Shown here piece after piece: positions 473 through 63,174 of a DNA stretch of 64,000 bases. The position numbers were made by a program, and so were the translations under genes. Source of the stretch: Eubacteriales bacterium (GTDB taxonomy: Bacteria; Bacillota; Clostridia; Oscillospirales; CAG-272); contig JAZSMP010000347.1 of NCBI GenBank assembly GCA_045535915.1, forward strand, positions 24,368-88,367, read 5' to 3'. Position 1 is the stretch's first letter. Every line of letters begins with the position of its first letter. The notes below the pieces were generated by a model. It worked only from the letters and a program-made list of their open reading frames with translations, was not told the origin of the DNA and did not search any database.

Positions 473-2359
473 ATGATTAATAACGAATATACAATTTTAT
501 CGCAGATCAAGTCACCTGTAGATCTCAGATCACTTGATCGTGAAGATGTATGCAAATTAGCTGAAGAAATTCGTGATTGCCTTGTCAACAATGTAAGCGA
601 ATCGGGAGGTCATCTGGCATCAAATCTCGGGGTCGTGGAACTGACTCTTGCCTTGCACCGTGTCTTTGATACTCCGAATGACAAGATCGTTTGGGATGTT
701 GGGCATCAAAGTTACGTGCATAAAATGATAACCGGTAGGCTTGATGATTTTGATACCTTAAGAACGCCGGGCGGTCTTTCGGGATTCACTAAAATGTCGG
801 AGAGCGAATACGACGCTTTCGGTGCCGGTCACAGTTCGACTTCGATTTCAGCGGCATTGGGATTGGCTGAGGCATCTCATCTTGCCGGAGATGATTCGTA
901 TTCAATTGCAGTAGTCGGTGACGGTGCTTTTACAGGCGGAATGATTTATGAGGCACTGAACAATTGTGACAGAACAAAAGGAATCAAACTCATTATAGTT
1001 TTGAATGAAAACGAGATGTCGATCTCGAAAAATATCGGGTCTGTCGCAAAAACTCTCTCGAAGATCAGAAACCGCCCCGGTTATTTTAAGACAAAAGCTG
1101 TAACCCGCGGAGTTCTTAACAAGATACCGCTTATAGGCAAGCCATTGGTGTCTTTTGTTATTAAGGTTAAAAAGGCAGTTAAGAATATACTTTACGGGTC
1201 AAACTATTTTGAGAACCTTGGCTTATATTATATTGGGCCGGTTGACGGTCATGATATTTCTGCACTTGAGGACATGCTTTCCGAGGCGAGAAAATGCGAA
1301 CAGAGCGTTATTGTTCATGTCAAGACTCAAAAGGGAAGAGGTTTTGCTCCTGCAGAAGAACGTCCGGATAAGTACCATTCCGTTGCTGCCAAGGACGCGG
1401 AGCAAGCGGGCGGTTTTTCTAAAGTTTTTGGCGATATACTTTCCGAATGCGCGCAAAATGACAAAACTGTTTGCGCGATTACTGCTGCAATGGGCAGAGG
1501 TACCGGATTGGGTCAATTTGAAAAAGAATATCCCGACAGATTTTTCGATGTTGGTATAGCCGAGGAGCATGCTGTGACTTTTGCAGCAGGCCTGGCAGCA
1601 GGAAAAATCAAACCTGTTTGTGCAATATATTCCACGTTTTTGCAGAGAGCGTATGATAATATAATTCATGACGTTGCATTGCAGAATCTGCATGTTGTCT
1701 TTGCTATTGACAGAGCGGGACTGAACCAAAGCGACGGCGCAACTCATCACGGAATATTTGATGTTGCTTTCCTATCGTCTATTCCCAATATGACCATCTT
1801 CACTCCCGCAACTTACGAGTGTCTTGAAAGGTCAATACGAAGCGCGATGACGATGGATTCTCCGGTTGCTATAAGGTATCCTAATGCTGTAGAAGATGAA
1901 TTGGTTAAAGTTGCATTTTATTCTGATGAAGTTGATAGCTTTACGGTTCGTTCATTTGGTGTCAGCGACAGCACTGATAATGTAATAATCACTCACGGAA
2001 GAATGGCGAGCGTTGCTCTTGATGCAATTGCAATGCTTGAGGATGAAGGCGTAAGTGCAGGTATTTTGCTTTGTGAATTTATTAAGCCGTATGATTCTCT
2101 TGCACGTATTATCGCGGAGAAGTTGCCGGAGTATGCAAAGAATATTGTTTTCCTTGAAGAGGAAATAATGTCGGGCGGATTCGGAATGAACCTTTCGGCT
2201 GAAATGAAACGTCAGGGTATTGGTTACCGTGCAAGACATAGGTTTGTGGCTGTCGATGATAATTTTGCAATACCTGAAAAGGGTGAAAGCGTATGGCAAG
2301 CAGCAGGCGTTGATGCGCAATCAGTTTGCAATACGATCCTTTCCATGAATAATAGATAA
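473..2359 (+). CDS. dxs: 1-deoxy-D-xylulose-5-phosphate synthase
   Basis: Motifs GGHLASNLGVVELTLALH, DVGHQSYVHKMITGR and GDGAFTGGMIYEALN, plus transketolase-like C-terminal domains. ATG 473 lies 5 nt after GGAG (464-467); the GTG at 467 has no RBS. Confidence 0.95.
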   Translation: MINNEYTILSQIKSPVDLRSLDREDVCKLAEEIRDCLVNNVSESGGHLASNLGVVELTLALHRVFDTPNDKIVWDVGHQSYVHKMITGRLDDFDTLRTPGGLSGFTKMSESEYDAFGAGHSSTSISAALGLAEASHLAGDDSYSIAVVGDGAFTGGMIYEALNNCDRTKGIKLIIVLNENEMSISKNIGSVAKTLSKIRNRPGYFKTKAVTRGVLNKIPLIGKPLVSFVIKVKKAVKNILYGSNYFENLGLYYIGPVDGHDISALEDMLSEARKCEQSVIVHVKTQKGRGFAPAEERPDKYHSVAAKDAEQAGGFSKVFGDILSECAQNDKTVCAITAAMGRGTGLGQFEKEYPDRFFDVGIAEEHAVTFAAGLAAGKIKPVCAIYSTFLQRAYDNIIHDVALQNLHVVFAIDRAGLNQSDGATHHGIFDVAFLSSIPNMTIFTPATYECLERSIRSAMTMDSPVAIRYPNAVEDELVKVAFYSDEVDSFTVRSFGVSDSTDNVIITHGRMASVALDAIAMLEDEGVSAGILLCEFIKPYDSLARIIAEKLPEYAKNIVFLEEEIMSGGFGMNLSAEMKRQGIGYRARHRFVAVDDNFAIPEKGESVWQAAGVDAQSVCNTILSMNNR

Positions 2360-2360
2360 A

Positions 2361-2390
2361 AATAACGTCACCGATCTCGGTGACGTTATT
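2361..2390. terminator. bidirectional rho-independent terminator (dxs / ldh)
   Basis: AATAACGTCACCG-atct-CGGTGACGTTATT, a 13-bp perfect stem flanked by A-run and T-run. Confidence 0.85.
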
Positions 2391-2391
2391 T

Positions 2392-3348
2392 TTATACAGG
2401 GATATTAATCTTTAAATTATCCAATGTGGAATGCATAATAGATGCAGAATATAAGAGTTTTTTCGTTTCTGATTCGTCTAAAGGAATTTCAAGAATTTGT
2501 TCTATTCCGTTTGCTCCGACTACGCAAGGAACGCCGAGACAGATCCCGCTAATTCCGTATTGACCGTCAAGATAAGCAGAGACGGGAAGGATCGCGTGTT
2601 CGTCTCGTACAATAGCTGAAACGATCCGTTTTACAGCTTCTGCAATTGCGTAGTAAGTCGCACCTTTGGCATCAATGATTTTATATGCGGCATCTCGTAC
2701 CTTACAGAAAATTGAGTCGAATGTTTTGTTACTGCAATCGGCAGCACAATCGGTGCAATACGAGGAAATATCAATTCCCGAAACATTTGCGCTACTCCAG
2801 ACGGGAAGTTCACTGTCTCCGTGTTCACCAATAATAAACGTGTGAATATTACGTGCATCAACGCCGAGCTTGTTCCCCATAAGTTGTTTCAATCTGGCTG
2901 TATCCAATACGGTTCCTGAGCCTATTACTTTCCTGTGATCGAATTTGGATAGAGCTATAGTTACATAGGTGAGTATATCAACAGGATTGGTTACTACCAG
3001 AATGATGCCGCTAAAGCGTGTCGCGGATATATTATCAATGATGTTAGAAAAGACTTTTGTGTTGCGTTGAACAAGATCGATCCTTGTTTCGCCTTGCTTT
3101 TGAGATACTCCCGCGGTAATTATCACTATTCCTGCATCGTTCAGATCCTTATAGTCACCGGCATAGATATCTACGGGTGAATTGAACGGTATTCCGTGGG
3201 CTATATCTTCTGCTTCACCTTCCGCGCGTTTTTTGTCAAGATCTATAAGAATAAGTTCATTGAATAAGCCCGAAATCATCAATGTGTATGCCGTTGTGGC
3301 ACCTACGTTTCCGCAACCGATGATCGCGCATTTTTTATTATTTTGCAT
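2392..3348 (-). CDS. ldh: L-lactate dehydrogenase
   Basis: NAD-binding IIGCGNVGATTAY, substrate loop GVSQKQGETRIDL and catalytic IGEHGDSE. GGAGG RBS upstream of the ATG. Confidence 0.9.
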   Translation of the reverse strand: MQNNKKCAIIGCGNVGATTAYTLMISGLFNELILIDLDKKRAEGEAEDIAHGIPFNSPVDIYAGDYKDLNDAGIVIITAGVSQKQGETRIDLVQRNTKVFSNIIDNISATRFSGIILVVTNPVDILTYVTIALSKFDHRKVIGSGTVLDTARLKQLMGNKLGVDARNIHTFIIGEHGDSELPVWSSANVSGIDISSYCTDCAADCSNKTFDSIFCKVRDAAYKIIDAKGATYYAIAEAVKRIVSAIVRDEHAILPVSAYLDGQYGISGICLGVPCVVGANGIEQILEIPLDESETKKLLYSASIMHSTLDNLKINIPV

Positions 3349-3424
3349 TTATATACCTCCATTAGAATTACGGTATTATTATTTGCAAAATAATCAATGT
3401 AATACGCAGAAGAGCGCGGTAAAC

Positions 3425-4918
3425 TTAATTGTCGATCCAAGAGCGGGAACGGTCTACTGCCTTATGCCAATTGTAGATGTTTTCGGCACGAGTTATCTCA
3501 TCCATGTCGGGAGAAACGATAGTATCTACCGCGCGGTTAGAAATAATTTGGGATGTATCTTTGATTGCTCCGACAGCGAGCCCGGCAAGATATGCCGCAC
3601 CGAGAGCGGTAGTTTCAATACAAGTAGGTCTTAAAACGTTCTTTCCGAGAATATCTGCTTGAATTTTGAGAAGAAGATTGTTGGCAGATGCACCTCCGTC
3701 AACATTAAGGGTATTGAAATTAATACCTGCTTCTTTCTGCATCAAAGACAGTACGTCATAAGTTTGATATGCCATTGAATCGAGAACTGATCTTACGAAA
3801 TGAGCTCTTGTGGTTCCGCGTGTTAATCCCGATATTGAACCTCTTGCGTAAGGATCCCAATAAGGTGCACCGAGTCCGACAAATGCGGGAACAAAATATA
3901 CGCCGCCGCTATTAGGAACACTTGAAGCGATTTCTTCGGTTTGTGCAGCAAAGCTGACGAGCCCTAAGCCGTCTCTGAGCCACTGAACCGCAGCTCCGCA
4001 TATAAACACCGAACCTTCAAGAGCGTAATATACTTTACCGTCGATACCCCATGCAATAGTTGTAACGAGACCGTTATCTGAATATACGGGACGTTCACCT
4101 GTGTTCATAAGTAAAAATCCGCCGGTACCGTATGTATTTTTAGCTTCTCCGGGATTAAAACAACATTGACCGAAAAGTGCCGCCTGCTGGTCTCCAGCAA
4201 CACCCGCTACAGGTATTGCTCCGCCAAAAAGTTCGGGAGTTGTATATCCGAATATACCGGAGGAGGGAAGAACATCGGGCAGTATCTCTTTGGGAATATC
4301 GAATGTTCTTAAAAGAGCGTCGTCCCACTGTAGAGTATTGATATTAAATATCATTGTTCTTGATGCGTTGGAATAGTCGGTAGCATGAACTTTTTTGCCG
4401 GTTAAGTTGTATATTAACCAGGAATCTACAGTTCCAAAGCAAAGTTCTCCGCGTTTTGCACGGTCGCGCGCTCCGTCAACATGATCGAGTATCCATTTGA
4501 TCTTGGTGGCTGAAAAATAGGGGTCTATTACAAGTCCGGTTTTTTCGCGGATCATATCAGTCAAACCAAATTTTGCCAGCTGTTCGCAGTAATCGGAGGT
4601 TCTTCTGCATTGCCATACGATTGCGTTGTAAATGGGTCTTCCTGTGGCTCTGTCCCAAATAACTGTCGTTTCGCGCTGATTTGTGATTCCGATTGCCGCG
4701 ATGTCCTTGTGTGTTAATCCTGCATCTGAAACTGCTTTTTTGGCAACAGCTATCTGACTTTCCCAAATGTCGTCGGGATTATGTTCGACGTATCCTTCTT
4801 TGGGAAATATTTGTGGGAATTCCGATTGTGACATAGAAATAATTTTTCCTGCAGGAGAGAAAACTATGGCGCGTGAGCTTGTAGTGCCGGCGTCGAGAGC
4901 AAGTAAATATTTTGACAT
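3425..4918 (-). CDS. glpK: glycerol kinase
   Basis: FGGY kinase motifs ALDAGTTSSRAIVF, NQRETTVIWD and GDQQAALFGQ over a full-length 497 aa. Confidence 0.95.
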   Translation of the reverse strand: MSKYLLALDAGTTSSRAIVFSPAGKIISMSQSEFPQIFPKEGYVEHNPDDIWESQIAVAKKAVSDAGLTHKDIAAIGITNQRETTVIWDRATGRPIYNAIVWQCRRTSDYCEQLAKFGLTDMIREKTGLVIDPYFSATKIKWILDHVDGARDRAKRGELCFGTVDSWLIYNLTGKKVHATDYSNASRTMIFNINTLQWDDALLRTFDIPKEILPDVLPSSGIFGYTTPELFGGAIPVAGVAGDQQAALFGQCCFNPGEAKNTYGTGGFLLMNTGERPVYSDNGLVTTIAWGIDGKVYYALEGSVFICGAAVQWLRDGLGLVSFAAQTEEIASSVPNSGGVYFVPAFVGLGAPYWDPYARGSISGLTRGTTRAHFVRSVLDSMAYQTYDVLSLMQKEAGINFNTLNVDGGASANNLLLKIQADILGKNVLRPTCIETTALGAAYLAGLAVGAIKDTSQIISNRAVDTIVSPDMDEITRAENIYNWHKAVDRSRSWIDN

Positions 4919-58803: not shown

Positions 58804-58832
58804 TTGACTTTTTATACTTTTTGTAGTATCAT
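58804..58832 (+). promoter_or_regulatory. promoter of the murT-gatD-hisS-dipeptidase operon
   Basis: TTGACT (58804-58809), a 17-nt spacer, then TATCAT (58827-58832). Confidence 0.5.
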
Positions 58833-58864: not shown

Positions 58865-60238
58865 TTGAATAAAATCAGATTTTTAATTGCAATGCTTACC
58901 GCTAAGCTTGCGCTGTTTCTCTTGAAACTGATGAAGCGCACCGCTTCATATACTCCTGGTTATCTTGCCCTTAAAATTTTCCCGGATTTTCTCGGTTCAC
59001 TGCAAATGCCTGACACCGTTATTTGCGTTACCGGCACCAATGGTAAAACCACGACAAGCAACCTTCTGGCAGATACTTTAAGAGATTGCGGCTATACAGT
59101 TACTAATAATAGCGCAGGCTCTAATGTACAAGCCGGTGTAGCCACAGCTTTGCTTGCAGATTCGACCCTTTTTGGTAAACCCAAAAAGCAAATAGCCGTA
59201 CTTGAAGTAGACGAGAGAAGTTCGATTAAAGTTTATTCGTATATCTCTCCGGATTACCTTATTTGTAACAATATTATGAGAGATTCACTCAAGCGAAATG
59301 CTCATACGGATTTCATAGTATATGTTATAAATAAAGCGCTTTCTCCGTCTACTCATGTTATATTGAATGCAGACGATCTTATCTGCTGTTCGGTTGCTGA
59401 AGCCAACTGTAAAAAAACTTATTTCGGAATAGATGCCGATAAACCTGATACATGGGATGAAAATGCTCCGAGAGATATTTATTATTGTCCTGTATGCGGT
59501 AATAAGTTAGAGGCTGAGTATATAAGATATAACCATATCGGAAGATTCAAATGTTCGGGATGCAGTTATGCTTCTCCTGCCTGCGACTATGTTGTTACTG
59601 AAATAGATAAAGAAAACAGCGAATTCATGATAGAACACAGCGGTGTTCAGCACAAATACCGTTTGATCAATGATAATATTGTCAATGTTTATAATTTCTG
59701 CGGCGCGATCTCTTTGTTATCCGAATTTGGACTCTCATTTGAACAAATTTCTTCTGCGTTAATGAAGCAGAAGATCGTAAAATCGAGATTCGATACTCTG
59801 ACGGCAGGCAAACTCAATATAACTATGCAACTTGCAAAAGGTCAGAATCCGATTGCATGTGCAAGAGCATACAGTTATGTAACAAGCTGTCCCGCCGAGA
59901 AAAAATCGTTACTAATTATGGTTGATGACAAATCCGATAATAATGGAAATTCCGAAAGTGTATGCTGGATCTATGACTGCGATTACAGCGCGCTGAAAAA
60001 TGACACAGTCGGAGAAATTATATTTGCCGGTCCAAGATGCAGGGATCAAAAATTACGCGCTCTGATTGTCGGAGTTGATCCCCAAAAAATCAAAACGGTA
60101 GATACCTTCTGTGGCGGCGTTGATTTGGTAGACACTGAAAAATTTGACGATATTTTTGTTCTCTACGACCCTTATCTGTTGGCTGAAGCTAATTACACAA
60201 AAAACGAGCTCATCAGAAAAGGAGTAAAGAAAAAATGA
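58865..60238 (+). CDS. murT: Mur ligase family protein, MurT-like (lipid II isoglutaminyl synthase subunit-like)
   Basis: P-loop CVTGTNGKTTTSNLL, MurT-type Cys4 ribbon CPVCGNKL...CSGC and a DUF1727-like C-terminus (CWIYDCDY). TTG start. Confidence 0.75.
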   Translation: MNKIRFLIAMLTAKLALFLLKLMKRTASYTPGYLALKIFPDFLGSLQMPDTVICVTGTNGKTTTSNLLADTLRDCGYTVTNNSAGSNVQAGVATALLADSTLFGKPKKQIAVLEVDERSSIKVYSYISPDYLICNNIMRDSLKRNAHTDFIVYVINKALSPSTHVILNADDLICCSVAEANCKKTYFGIDADKPDTWDENAPRDIYYCPVCGNKLEAEYIRYNHIGRFKCSGCSYASPACDYVVTEIDKENSEFMIEHSGVQHKYRLINDNIVNVYNFCGAISLLSEFGLSFEQISSALMKQKIVKSRFDTLTAGKLNITMQLAKGQNPIACARAYSYVTSCPAEKKSLLIMVDDKSDNNGNSESVCWIYDCDYSALKNDTVGEIIFAGPRCRDQKLRALIVGVDPQKIKTVDTFCGGVDLVDTEKFDDIFVLYDPYLLAEANYTKNELIRKGVKKK

Positions 60239-60945
60239 TAATAGAAGTACTGTTTAGCGAGATTTGTAATCTCTATGGCGACCCTCAGAATGTTGAATAT
60301 CTGGCTCAAACTCTGCCTGATGCTACTATAATTCACACATCATTGGATTCAGAACCGTATTTTGTCAACAACCGCCCCGATATGATTATCATGGGTTCAA
60401 TGAGCGATAACATGCTTCCTAACGTTATTGACAAGCTCAGACAATATCTTTGCAGGATAGACGACTTGGTCTATGATAAAGTGGTTTTTTTAGCCACAGG
60501 AAGTGCTTTTGAAGTGTTTTGCGGCACCATTGAGAATGTTACTCTTGAGACAAAAATCAGCGGACTGCATAAATGTCCTTTTGATGTTAAAATAAACTGG
60601 TTTGACAGATATAACGGTAAGATTATCGGTAAATTCAATGATTTGACGATCACAGGTTTCAGATCTCAATTCTCTATGCTATACGGGGATAATTCAAAAG
60701 ATGGGTTTGTGCAGGTTGAACGAGGAATAGGTATCAATCGCGAAAGTAAAATCGAAGGTTACAGAAGTAATAATTTCTTTGGAACTCATATACTTGGACC
60801 GATACTTCCGCTCAATCCCGAATTCTGCGAATACTTGATCTCGCTTACCGGAGAAAACGCGATCGCCGCTTTCAAGGAAGAGGCAATGGATGCATATCAT
60901 CAGAGAGTTAAAGAATTCTCGGATCCTAAAATTAAATTTGACTAA
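60235..60945 (+). CDS. GatD-like CobB/CobQ-type amidotransferase-fold protein with non-canonical active-site residues
   Basis: ATGA overlap with murT. Family landmarks MIIMGS, ITGFRSQ and FFGTHILGPILPLNPEF are present. The expected CGG(Y/F)Q elbow reads ATGSAF, and GTY(L/I)HG reads GTHILG. Confidence 0.65.
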   Translation: MIIEVLFSEICNLYGDPQNVEYLAQTLPDATIIHTSLDSEPYFVNNRPDMIIMGSMSDNMLPNVIDKLRQYLCRIDDLVYDKVVFLATGSAFEVFCGTIENVTLETKISGLHKCPFDVKINWFDRYNGKIIGKFNDLTITGFRSQFSMLYGDNSKDGFVQVERGIGINRESKIEGYRSNNFFGTHILGPILPLNPEFCEYLISLTGENAIAAFKEEAMDAYHQRVKEFSDPKIKFD

Positions 60946-60966: not shown

Positions 60967-62193
60967 ATGAAACTCATTAAAACGCCGACCAAAGGAATGA
61001 ACGACTATCTTCCTTCCGAGGTAGCACTTCGTGAATATGTAAAAAATGTTATAATAAGCTCTTACGCTTCAGACGGTTTCTGCATGATCGAAACCCCCGC
61101 TGTTGAGCATATTGAAAATCTCACAGGTAAAAACGGCGGCGAAAACGAGAAACTAATCTTCAAGATCATGAAAAGAGGAGAGAAGCTTGCGAACGCTTCT
61201 TCTGAAGATGATCTTTGCGACAGCGGTCTCAGATACGACCTGACTGTTCCGCTTTCAAGATATTATGCAAATAATTCCGCTAAACTTCCTTCTCCTTTCC
61301 TTGCTATGCAGATCGGCAACGTATGGCGTGCAGACCGTCCTCAGAAGGGAAGATACAGACAGTTTACACAGTGCGATATCGACATCCTCGGCGATTCCAC
61401 ACAGACTGCAGAGATCACTCTTATCTCGTCCACCGCAGGCGTTCTCCGCAAGCTTGGATTTGATAATTTCACTATCAGGATCAATGACAGAAGAATGCTA
61501 AAGCTTTGTGCAGAAGCATGCGGATTTGCTCCGGAAGAACACGATAAAGTTTTTATCATTCTCGATAAAATGGATAAGATAGGTCTTGACGGTGTTAAGA
61601 ACGAACTCTTGTCAGAAGGCTATGATGAAAGCAACGTCAACAAATACATTGAGCTTTATAGGGATTGTGACACTGTTGCTGTGGAAGATTTCGCTTCAAC
61701 TCTTGGTGATGCCGGTGCAAAGATAGCTTCCGATCTTTCTACTATTATGAGATGCGCTTCTGCAGCTACAGTAGGAGGATGTAAACTTGCATTCGATCCC
61801 ACGCTTGTACGCGGAATGTCGTACTATACCGGAACAATTTTTGAAATAAGAATGGACGGCTACGGTTATTCTGTCGGCGGCGGCGGAAGATATGACGAAA
61901 TGCTCGGTAAGTTTATGGGTCAGAAGGTTCCTGCTTGCGGATTTTCACTTGGATTTGAGCGAATCGTTTCTGCTCTTGCAGATTCCGGTTTTGTCCCGCC
62001 CGCGGCAAAGAGATCCGTTGCTTTCCTTGCGTCTAAAAACATGAGCGAAGAGAACATGCTGAAGATGTATTCAGATGCAGCAGCATTGCGAGCTGATGGT
62101 GTAAGGGTTCTTGTTACCGCGAAGATGAAAAATGTGTATTTCCAAAAAACAAAGCTCACAGAAGAAGGATATACCGAATTCGTTGAGTATTGA
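60967..62193 (+). CDS. hisS: histidine--tRNA ligase (archaeal/eukaryote-like type)
   Basis: GMNDYLP, LRYDLTVPLSRY, motif 2 RPQKGRYRQFTQCDIDILG, His-specific RGMSYYTG and GGGRYD, and a short anticodon-binding domain. Confidence 0.8.
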   Translation: MKLIKTPTKGMNDYLPSEVALREYVKNVIISSYASDGFCMIETPAVEHIENLTGKNGGENEKLIFKIMKRGEKLANASSEDDLCDSGLRYDLTVPLSRYYANNSAKLPSPFLAMQIGNVWRADRPQKGRYRQFTQCDIDILGDSTQTAEITLISSTAGVLRKLGFDNFTIRINDRRMLKLCAEACGFAPEEHDKVFIILDKMDKIGLDGVKNELLSEGYDESNVNKYIELYRDCDTVAVEDFASTLGDAGAKIASDLSTIMRCASAATVGGCKLAFDPTLVRGMSYYTGTIFEIRMDGYGYSVGGGGRYDEMLGKFMGQKVPACGFSLGFERIVSALADSGFVPPAAKRSVAFLASKNMSEENMLKMYSDAAALRADGVRVLVTAKMKNVYFQKTKLTEEGYTEFVEY

Positions 62194-62207
62194 TTTTGAG
62201 GTGACTC

Positions 62208-63140
62208 ATGTTTGTTGTTGATTCACATTGTGACAGTATAGCTTATGTTGACAGCGGAAAATATCCGCTCGTAAATCCGCATAATTTCAGCACTAAATAT
62301 CAACAGCTTCAGTTTGTTGCAATGTTTTGCATCGCCAAAGATGGTGATATAAACGAAGCATATAAACGAACTGTCAGATATATCGGTCAATTTGCTATTT
62401 CAATGCAGAAAGAATCCGATAAGATCATGCAAGTTAAGAGCTTCAATGACATTGAAAATGCCTTCAAGAGCGGCAAACACGCTGCGTTGCTTGCTATCGA
62501 GGGAGGATCGGGCATAAAAGCTTCACCCGAAATACTTGAAGATTTTTATACTTTTGGAGTTCGCATAATGGGACTTTCATGGCTTTCAAATGAACTTGCC
62601 AAAAGCAATAGAATAGCATTTGATGAAGAAGATACCGGCCTGACAGATATCGGTCGCTCTATTGTACATAAGGGCAACGAGCTTGGAATGATTTTTGATG
62701 TATCACATCTTTCTGATAAGAGTTTCTGGGACCTTGCTGAAATATCAAAAAAGCCTATTATAGCATCTCATTCAAATTTCAGATCATTATGTTCGCACAG
62801 CAGAAATCTGACAGACGATATGGCTCGCTTCATTGTTGAGCACGACGGCATGATCGGATTGAATATGTATCCCGAATTTATTGACGAATATGAAGCAAAG
62901 CAAACTGTAGACAGATACTTCGATCATCTTGATTACTGTATTGACAAATTCGGCTCGGACAATATAGGCTTTGGTGGAGATATAGATGGAACAAGCGGAA
63001 TGTATCCCTCTCCGATTACAGAAGAAACCTCCATTCACGATCAGTTTATTGATGCGATGATGAAGAGAGGATATTCCGACACGATTATCGAAAAGTTTGC
63101 CGGCGGAAACTACTTAAACTTCTTACGTAAATATTTATGA
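62208..63140 (+). CDS. M19-family membrane dipeptidase
   Basis: N-terminal VVDSHCDS metal site, plus IEGG, DVSHLS, ASHSN and GGDIDG motifs. GAGGTG RBS. Confidence 0.9.
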   Translation: MFVVDSHCDSIAYVDSGKYPLVNPHNFSTKYQQLQFVAMFCIAKDGDINEAYKRTVRYIGQFAISMQKESDKIMQVKSFNDIENAFKSGKHAALLAIEGGSGIKASPEILEDFYTFGVRIMGLSWLSNELAKSNRIAFDEEDTGLTDIGRSIVHKGNELGMIFDVSHLSDKSFWDLAEISKKPIIASHSNFRSLCSHSRNLTDDMARFIVEHDGMIGLNMYPEFIDEYEAKQTVDRYFDHLDYCIDKFGSDNIGFGGDIDGTSGMYPSPITEETSIHDQFIDAMMKRGYSDTIIEKFAGGNYLNFLRKYL

Positions 63141-63142
63141 CA

Positions 63143-63174
63143 AATAAAGCTGCCCAACTCAGGGCAGCTTTATT
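63143..63174. terminator. bidirectional terminator (dipeptidase / LbH gene)
   Basis: AATAAAGCTGCCC-aactca-GGGCAGCTTTATT. The right arm overlaps the 3' end of the LbH CDS. Confidence 0.8.

Follow-up and report, generated by a model that had tools for sequence, protein, structure and literature searches.

The window analyzed here, a 64,000-nucleotide stretch of DNA from an Eubacteriales bacterium of the clostridial lineage CAG-272, carries a murT-like gene followed directly by a gatD-like gene. The latter is an open reading frame of 236 amino acids on the forward strand (60235-60945), and its ATG overlaps the TGA of the MurT-like open reading frame in an ATGA overlap; the overlapping murT-gatD order is that of the canonical MurT/GatD lipid II isoglutaminyl synthase. 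MurT/GatD is an essential and structurally characterized drug target in staphylococci, pneumococci and mycobacteria, and it has been taken throughout as a glutamine amidotransferase. The GatD-like protein of the window had originally been predicted, from the sequence read by eye, to possess neither the catalytic cysteine nor the catalytic histidine of a glutaminase, and profile, sequence and fold-based register indeed place neither residue there. The pair appears to represent a new form of MurT/GatD, in which a putative pseudo-glutaminase accompanies a remodelled ligase centre.

Fold and catalytic residues of the pair

Both subunits are recognizable relatives of the canonical enzyme, which has been characterized in Staphylococcus aureus, Streptococcus pneumoniae and Streptococcus pyogenes (PDB 6GS2, 6H5E, 5N9M, 6FQB, 9SQ9), at identities of only about 22-26%. 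An AlphaFold (AF2) model of the GatD-like protein, computed from 46 relatives, has a predicted local distance difference test (pLDDT) score of 97.7 and displays the class I glutaminase fold with the extra C-terminal helix (residues 214-229). The best PDB matches to this model in Foldseek are GatD chains (6h5e_A and 6gs2_A; template modelling (TM) score 0.83-0.86, with S. aureus GatD at 0.85), followed at a distance by the glutaminases HisH and PdxT, and a phmmer search against the PDB returns S. aureus and streptococcal GatD as the only relatives. Family models respond less readily: the protein scores 38-40 bits against two NCBIfam GatD equivalogs with cut-offs of 400-450, matches no Pfam family at E<0.1 and does not reach the GATase_3 gathering threshold, and some of its orthologues carry precomputed PF07685 matches. 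The MurT-like protein aligns with S. aureus MurT (7q8e/6gs2) at a phmmer E-value of 1e-46, and its AF2 model (pLDDT 88.7) finds MurT chains as the best PDB folds (TM 0.7-0.8 to the streptococcal chains), with further matches to MurF, MurE and pMurC. Its NCBIfam MurT score of 179-184 bits likewise falls short of the cut-off of 800.

The register of the former active site was set by phmmer alignment to the GatD chains in the PDB, by MAFFT alignments with 23 canonical Clostridia GatDs and by the secondary structure of the AF2 model. The position of the nucleophilic cysteine (C94 of S. aureus, in the elbow T92-I-C94-G-G) falls on Gly89 within A87-T88-G89-S90-A91; in the model a strand spans residues 84-88 and a helix begins at 89, so that Thr88 is the last residue of the strand and Gly89 the elbow. 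The original prediction had assigned the cysteine position to Thr88 and the histidine position to Leu187. The first of these assignments moves by one residue, to Gly89, according to both the alignments and the model, and the second stands, with His189 of S. aureus (GTYxHGP) aligning with Leu187 in the phmmer and MAFFT comparisons. The residues themselves read as first described: LATGSAF comprises residues 86-92, with Thr88 encoded by ACA at 60496-60498, GTHILGP comprises residues 183-189, with Leu187 encoded by CTT at 60793-60795, and the stretch GPILPLNPEF is also present.

The loss extends well beyond these two positions. The oxyanion Gly-Gly (canonical G55 G56; G60 of S. aureus), which is conserved in canonical GatDs only, reads Ser55 Met56 in the window, the oxyanion residue equivalent to G95 of S. 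aureus is Ser90 in the window GatD and Asn in the clade to which it belongs, and Gln98 of CGGYQ is replaced by Glu93. In the S. aureus structure Asp349 of MurT completes the catalytic triad (PMC6113224); this residue, located in DGxDxSW, aligns with Ser365 in NSESVCW of the window MurT. Among 26 diverse pairs of this type, referred to below as triad-less, an acidic residue occupies MurT position 364 in 18 (Glu364 in the window), and Glu364, next to Ser365, may supply a shifted triad acid. Because the cysteine, the histidine, the oxyanion glycines and the MurT aspartate are lost, glutamine would not serve as a source of ammonia; the alignments thus support the proposal that the window GatD cannot hydrolyze glutamine by the canonical Cys-His-Asp mechanism, and they do so over more residues than the original prediction had considered.

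Other elements of canonical GatD are retained, namely the lid NLYGD with its Tyr plug and Asp, Arg125 and the GP(I/L)LPxNP contact stretch. In the pneumococcal lid loop Tyr30 acts as the plug and a role has been proposed for Asp32 (PMC6085368), and Arg128 of S. aureus GatD, the equivalent of Arg125, captures glutamine (PMC5871853). Thr88 and Leu187, singled out in the original prediction, are conserved as well. Across 120 orthologues (54-88% identity), Leu86, Thr88 and Gly89 never vary, and only Leu or Ile is found at position 187; across the 26 diverse triad-less GatDs the elbow reads T-G-N in 24-25 (Gly in 25 of 26) and position 93 is always acidic. About 20 residues fixed in canonical GatDs vary in the triad-less type, and newly fixed positions are few (Glu58, Thr88, Gly89, Asn90, Glu93 and Ile99), a pattern that fits the loss of a glutaminase and not the making of an elaborate new active site.

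It is conceivable that the GatD-like protein is still a glutaminase, or some other hydrolase, acting through a non-canonical nucleophile such as Thr88, Ser90 or Cys96, but we consider this very improbable. Thr88 adjoins the elbow and recurs in 24 of the 26 members of the wider clade, and the pocket Arg125 and the lid residues Tyr14 and Asp16 are kept. Set against this, Thr88 ends a strand and gives way to Val, Ile, Ala, Ser or Pro in some members, position 90 is mostly Asn, and the oxyanion Gly-Gly is gone along with the constraint on the roughly 20 canonical-only residues. Cys96, put forward earlier as a substitute nucleophile, is rejected: it is not conserved and is Gly in the wider clade. 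The fallback of His185, two residues before Leu187, fails in the same way, this position being mostly Gln or Tyr elsewhere, and no other conserved His or general base lies nearby.

The MurT-like subunit, by comparison of its sequence with both types, is apparently a working ligase with an intact catalytic core. It displays the landmarks of the Mur ligase superfamily (the P-loop GxxGK(T/S), the Mg-binding acids and the adenine-binding Asn residues) and keeps, as in canonical MurT, the E-x-D-E motif, the acceptor G-x-N loop, the Cys4 zinc ribbon and the MurT_C domain. Residues invariant in both types comprise G57, G60 and K61 of the P-loop, N82, G85 and N87 of the acceptor loop, E114, D116 and E117, N136, R139, D140, R144 and N168, the four zinc-ribbon cysteines, Y276 and N277, K325 and N328, W368 and D371, and R398. 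A second set of residues distinguishes the two types. Position 118, directly after EVDE, is Arg in 24 of 26 triad-less MurTs and Ala or Gly in 21 of 21 canonical ones; position 147 is His in 24 of 26 versus Glu in all 21 (E143 of S. pneumoniae); Asn145 stands in place of a canonical Tyr or Phe, and Ser86 in place of the Ala of the canonical G-A-N acceptor loop; and Asp248 is a further conserved position specific to the triad-less type. The pneumococcal loop 135-143, in which E143 lies, is the ammonia-channel or active-site loop of MurT (PMC6085368). Judged from these alignments, these MurT residues have changed in coordination. The features of both genes and of their surroundings are collected in Table 1.

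Table 1. Coordinates of the murT-gatD locus and of motifs encoded within it (positions in the window)
Feature	Position	Strand	Basis
Sigma-70-like promoter match TTGACT-17-TATCAT, 5' of murT	58804..58832	+	Consensus scan, 10/12 positions; consensus match only
MurT-like Mur ligase, 457 amino acids, triad-less type	58865..60238	+	Pfam PF08245 (Mur_ligase_M) and PF08353 (MurT_C)
MurT P-loop G57-T-N-G-K-T-T63	59033..59053	+	G57, G60 and K61 invariant in both types
MurT Mg-binding E114-V-D116-E117, then type-specific Arg118	59204..59218	+	Alignment of both types
MurT active-site / ammonia-channel loop R139-D-S-L-K-R-N145-A-H147	59279..59305	+	Alignment; loop role from PMC6085368
MurT Cys4 zinc ribbon C208, C211, C230, C233	59486..59563	+	Four Cys invariant in both types
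MurT loop N362-S-E-S365-V-C-W368; canonical counterpart D-G-x-D-(V/I)-S-W	59948..59968	+	Alignments
GatD-like class I glutaminase-fold subunit, 236 amino acids, predicted catalytically dead	60235..60945	+	AF2 model, Foldseek
GatD lid loop N12-L-Y14-G15-D16-P-Q-N19, retained	60268..60291	+	G15 and N19 at least 90% conserved in both types
GatD degenerate oxyanion strand G54-S-M-S-D58; canonical G-G-G-S/Q-D	60394..60408	+	Alignment
GatD former nucleophile elbow L86-A-T88-G89-S90-A-F-E93	60490..60513	+	Alignments, AF2 model
GatD Arg125, equivalent of S. aureus Arg128, retained	60607..60609	+	Alignment; at least 90% conserved in both types
GatD G183-T-H-I-L187-G-P-I-L-P-L-N-P195, MurT-contacting hydrophobic/Pro stretch kept	60781..60819	+	Alignments; interface role from PMC6113224
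hisS and M19 dipeptidase gene, likely co-transcribed neighbours	60967..63174, terminator 63143-63174	+	Pfam, terminator scan

Distribution and ancestry of the triad-less type

The altered GatD is not peculiar to this gene; it belongs to a large and old clade. A HMMER scan of 1.84 billion cluster representatives yielded 827 clusters at E<=0.001. Among the best 150 of these 827, which reach down to about 31% identity, none that can be aligned has an elbow Cys together with the His, and the motif takes the form TG(N/S)AxE ... GTx(L/I)(L/I)GP. Four representative clusters (P0121, P0126, P0155 and P0231; 698-758 amino acids) fuse a complete MurT with a triad-less GatD into a single polypeptide. E-x-D-E-R and R-D-S-x-x-R-N-A-H are retained in all of them except P0231, which reads ELDEL and ...RNAN.

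A census of 399 sampled Clostridia genomes, in which a triad-less profile was compared with the canonical GatD model, assigned the triad-less type to about 36 genomes (~9%) and the canonical type to about 170; these counts are samples of related species and not independent observations, and 32 of the roughly 36 triad-less carriers were motif-checked in fetched loci. The best E-value of the canonical model in triad-less carriers is 1e-35, versus 1e-45 to 1e-92 in canonical carriers, and in this sample the triad-less type replaces the canonical pair rather than adding to it. The two subunits also vary together. In 46 of 46 fetched triad-less Clostridia loci a GatD without the triad directly follows a MurT without the DGxD aspartate, the two genes being always adjacent and often overlapping, and each canonical GatD in the fetched loci sits directly after a MurT that has this aspartate. 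In a maximum-likelihood tree of 55 MurTs (quick search, LG+G4), a single branch with a Shimodaira-Hasegawa-like approximate likelihood ratio (SH-aLRT) support of 99 separates the triad-less pairs from the rest. Because GatD descends from Cys-His glutaminases, one ancient loss of the triad would be the simplest history.

Single changes at the same positions occur within the canonical MurT clade, at loci L044 (genome G199) and L047 (genome G204). At one of these two loci Asp takes the place of the GatD Cys, and both the His and the MurT Asp remain; at the other the Cys remains and Asp takes the place of the His. These single losses may be independent partial inactivations.

Carriers of the triad-less type are anaerobes of gut, rumen and sediment, and the closest relatives of the window pair come from metagenome-assembled genomes of the animal gut, for example from horse faeces. 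Exact-sequence look-up identified as cultured carriers Acetobacterium carbinolicum, A. woodii, A. wieringae, Eubacterium spp., Aminicella, Anaerofustis, Frisingicoccus, Saccharofermentans/Mageeibacillus, Fastidiosipila sanguinis, Ruminococcaceae bacterium YAD3003 and Mahellales; in these named carriers the genes are annotated as hypothetical, as CobQ-like or as 'type 1 glutamine amidotransferase'. Frisingicoccus carries two triad-less pairs in tandem (L090 of genome G388; 853-4825, minus strand), whose GatD-like copies are 50% identical. The second of its MurTs, at 383 amino acids, is without the zinc-ribbon insertion and the N-x-x-R-D loop and keeps the P-loop and EVDER.

Both genes are under purifying selection. 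Between the window and its orthologues synonymous divergence (dS) is saturated and non-synonymous divergence (dN) is 0.18-0.44; where dS is measurable, their ratio omega comes to about 0.17 (GatD-like gene) and about 0.15 (murT). The low omega and the conservation of Thr88, Gly89 and position 187 argue that the pair is not decaying. The GatD-like protein thereby combines the marks of a pseudoenzyme, with catalytic residues lost, purifying selection acting, and partner and interface kept, and we consider it very probable that the GatD of the window is glutaminase-dead yet a functional partner of MurT.

That the pair is instead a decaying or non-functional remnant, or that the GatD-like protein is a ligand sensor that only regulates MurT, strikes us as improbable. 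The pair is accessory in the genus of the window, where it occurs in 14 of 24 genomes and is missing from 10, three of them 95-98% complete; the canonical enzyme, in contrast, is essential in the pathogens studied. A pocket conserved without its catalytic residues would also be compatible with a sensor. Conservation across a deep clade, purifying selection and near-universal presence in the Eubacteriaceae nevertheless exclude a remnant. A pure sensor role would refine the view of GatD as a dead but functional partner and not replace it, the two being inseparable here.

Source of the nucleophile

In the reading that we prefer, MurT would be an intact ATP-dependent Mur-type ligase and GatD a pseudo-glutaminase that keeps its fold, its lid loop, the Arg128 equivalent and the MurT-binding surface, and that is presumably kept as an obligate structural or allosteric partner needed by MurT. 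In these gut and anaerobic bacteria, free cytoplasmic ammonia or ammonium would most likely serve as the nucleophile, and the product would be D-iso-glutamine, formed with no glutamine consumed; complex formation, the identity of the acceptor and ammonia as the donor are points that we infer. Animal-gut habitats are rich in ammonium. A parallel is offered by carbamoyl-phosphate synthetase I of ureotelic animals, which retains a Cys-less class I glutaminase module in a structural or allosteric capacity and uses free ammonia, although it is an unrelated synthetase of fused architecture. Taken as a whole, the statement that a dead-glutaminase scaffold accompanies an active MurT ligase using free ammonia is, in our estimation, about evenly balanced between being right and being wrong.

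A closer precedent was engineered in S. aureus. MurT combined with GatD-C94G lost glutamine-dependent activity and kept NH3-dependent amidation of lipid II at pH 8.5, and MurT without GatD was inactive with any donor (PMC3266927). On this precedent free ammonia would therefore be the most economical donor, and the C94G complex likewise supports the earlier suggestion that GatD serves as a structural subunit to a MurT using free ammonium or another amine. That suggestion is kept here; the second one made at the time, that the pair performs different chemistry on the cell-wall precursor, also survives. The mutant shares its Cys-to-Gly change at the elbow with the window GatD. It is, however, one laboratory mutation in an otherwise canonical background and shows no ammonia-dependent activity at pH 7.5, whereas the natural clade has many further changes, those in MurT included.

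Several observations weigh against ammonia as the donor or against GatD as a plain scaffold. First, the canonical complex cannot use NH3/NH4+ at pH 7.5 (PMC3266927), and an ammonia-dependent enzyme would need adaptation beyond it. Second, the triad-less MurTs have type-specific residues at the catalytic centre (Arg118, His147, Asn145, Ser86 and Asp248), which a mere change in the source of ammonia does not obviously explain, and an Arg would be odd in an ammonium site. Third, what was once the glutamine pocket is still conserved (T-G-N-x-x-E, the lid NLYGD and Arg125), which hints at a bound ligand rather than at a pure scaffold. Fourth, one Eubacteriaceae genome described below carries both types, arguing against simple redundancy at least for the branch to which it belongs. 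Finally, no canonical MurT/GatD was found in the genome of the window, where the other GATase_3 matches are only HisH and a DJ-1-like protein, but at 87.5% completeness and with uneven GC content this assembly makes the absence weak evidence.

An alternative reading takes the type-specific residues as its starting point. The triad-less MurT may join a nucleophile other than ammonia, whether an amino acid such as glycine, a D-diamino acid or a diamine, to the alpha-carboxyl of D-Glu, with the dead GatD as a scaffold or substrate-recognition subunit; the clade would then be the family of enzymes responsible for peptidoglycans with a substituted alpha-carboxyl and for those of group B (2-4 cross-linked). 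We entertain this reading tentatively, as a possibility that is probably incorrect. In its favor, the five residues listed above are conserved at the MurT catalytic centre solely in the triad-less type. The homologous MurT counterpart of the DNPR loop, by which MurE binds its amino acid, is also rebuilt, with DGxD giving way to a longer S-E-S/N loop. All amino-acid-adding Mur ligases, moreover, have a His in the active-site loop, and canonical MurT has none (PMC6085368). MurC/D/E/F and archaeal pMurC (PDB 6VR7), the latter being the next-best NCBIfam and PDB match of the window MurT after MurT itself, belong to the same ligase superfamily and share with it ATP-dependent acyl-phosphate chemistry and an active-site-loop His. 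Unlike the window MurT they possess an N-terminal uridine diphosphate (UDP)-binding domain, lack a glutaminase-fold partner and act on soluble UDP precursors, and His147 does not occupy the classical D-H position of the amino-acid-adding enzymes. Two further points count against a different nucleophile: the C-terminal domain of MurT, which in Mur ligases receives the incoming amino acid, has acquired no new conserved residues, and the conserved neighbourhood of the pair contains no gene for a racemase or for amine biosynthesis.

Further evidence on this alternative comes from the Eubacteriaceae family. A strongly diverged, Acetobacterium-type branch of the triad-less clade (GatD VTGTS and FTNTLGP; MurT ETDER and YTNTFYxFDCDF) is present in 52 of 53 genomes of the family, including 27 of 27 from Acetobacterium and 7 of 7 from a 4.4-Mb Eubacterium-like genus, and two other genera of the family carry canonical pairs. 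A separate search of the Eubacteriaceae found one genome with both types (G480), which has a triad-less pair of the Acetobacterium type on one contig and a canonical Cys/His/Asp pair on another (L099 and L100). This coexistence, together with the tandem triad-less pairs of Frisingicoccus, speaks for chemistry other than that of the canonical enzyme, as does the distribution of MurE motifs within the family: the triad-less pair goes with a MurE not of the diaminopimelic acid (DAP) type (DNPA or EDPS), and the canonical pair with DNSR.

The murein of A. woodii and E. limosum is of group B (B2-alpha), with D-Orn or D-Lys attached to the alpha-carboxyl of D-Glu. B2-alpha murein is listed for Eubacterium in one review; for Acetobacterium a limited literature search brought no confirmation. 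An obvious candidate for group B attachment is a ligase of the MurT type whose nucleophile site has been remodelled, on the strength of a correlation among relatives, which is not proof. In a limited literature search we found no paper on a triad-less GatD, none naming a gene for group B bridge attachment and none on the polyamine-to-D-Glu ligase of Selenomonas/Veillonella.

The branch of the window itself fits this alternative less well. It occurs in DAP-type backgrounds, with a MurE motif of DNSR or DNPR in the window genome, its close relatives, YAD3003 and Frisingicoccus, and absence of the pair from 10 of 24 genomes of the genus argues that it is not an essential cross-bridge ligase there. 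A role as group B bridge ligase is accordingly unlikely for the window's own pair, given the DAP-like MurE of the genus and the accessory nature of the pair; for this branch a non-cross-linking, non-amide substituent is possible. In its most complete form the alternative holds that the clade comprises lipid-II-level ligases adding other amines (an amino acid, D-ornithine/D-lysine or a diamine), that GatD is a platform at the nucleophile site, that the Acetobacterium/Eubacterium branch starts the 2-4 group B cross-bridge, and that the window's branch adds an undescribed substituent to DAP-type peptidoglycan. This fuller version, too, seems to us doubtful, if worth retaining beside the preferred reading of free ammonia.

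Genomic setting and implications

The assembly that contains the window is divided into 390 contigs of uneven composition, with about 0.5 Mb at 40-46% GC, including the 104-kb window contig (C29) at 41%, and about 2 Mb at 48-54%. A relative that is 97% complete (G005) displays the same contrast, its murT-gatD locus having a GC fraction of 0.42-0.44 versus 0.50-0.54 at its murE loci. The contrast thus looks more like a feature of the genus, with large low-GC regions, than like contamination or co-binned populations, but what is said here of the window's own genome carries little weight.

MurE-family ligases were surveyed on contigs C299 and C259 of the window assembly and at loci L112-L129 of relatives G002-G024. 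In most genomes of the genus two such ligases exceed the TIGR01085 cut-off, the first with DNSR or DNPR as its DAP-binding motif; at this motif the second reads KDPA(D/T)E (G000, G005, G007, G010, G018), DNPDFE (G002, G016, G020) or DDPEYE (G024). Two MurE types in one genus suggest, from the motifs, an unusual stem-peptide chemistry. Within the genus, MurE paralogue content and presence of the pair gave no clean correlation.

A promoter-like site and a terminator flank murT, gatD, hisS and the M19 dipeptidase gene as one likely operon. A functional link of the pair to the two downstream genes was rejected on two grounds: hisS follows murT-gatD solely in the genus of the window, and this hisS (60967-62193) encodes the one histidyl-tRNA synthetase (HisRS) of the assembly that exceeds the family cut-off. 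Contig C253 holds a weaker HisRS match, just 5' of histidine-biosynthesis genes, which is possibly HisZ. In A. carbinolicum the pair (locus L050, 3252-5098) is followed by mnmA and a phosphoglucosamine-mutase-like gene (PGM_PMM_I). In the window, according to an earlier note on this DNA, glmM lies near the pair on the opposite strand.

A deep and conserved clade thus appears to have dropped glutaminase chemistry and yet kept the GatD subunit, which implies that the structural role of GatD is separable from catalysis, as hinted by the C94G mutant. The annotations 'type 1 glutamine amidotransferase', 'CobQ' and 'hypothetical protein' are accordingly misleading for the triad-less genes. The existence of cultured carriers (A. 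woodii, E. limosum-like strains, Frisingicoccus, Fastidiosipila and Ruminococcaceae YAD3003) makes the question of the nucleophile directly testable. Many anaerobes of the gut and rumen, and acetogens as well, would accordingly modify their peptidoglycan without drawing on glutamine. If the nucleophile is not ammonia, these pairs would be candidate genes for the long-known and genetically unassigned substitutions of the D-Glu alpha-carboxyl, group B cross-bridges included, and the muropeptides seen by the host immune system would differ.

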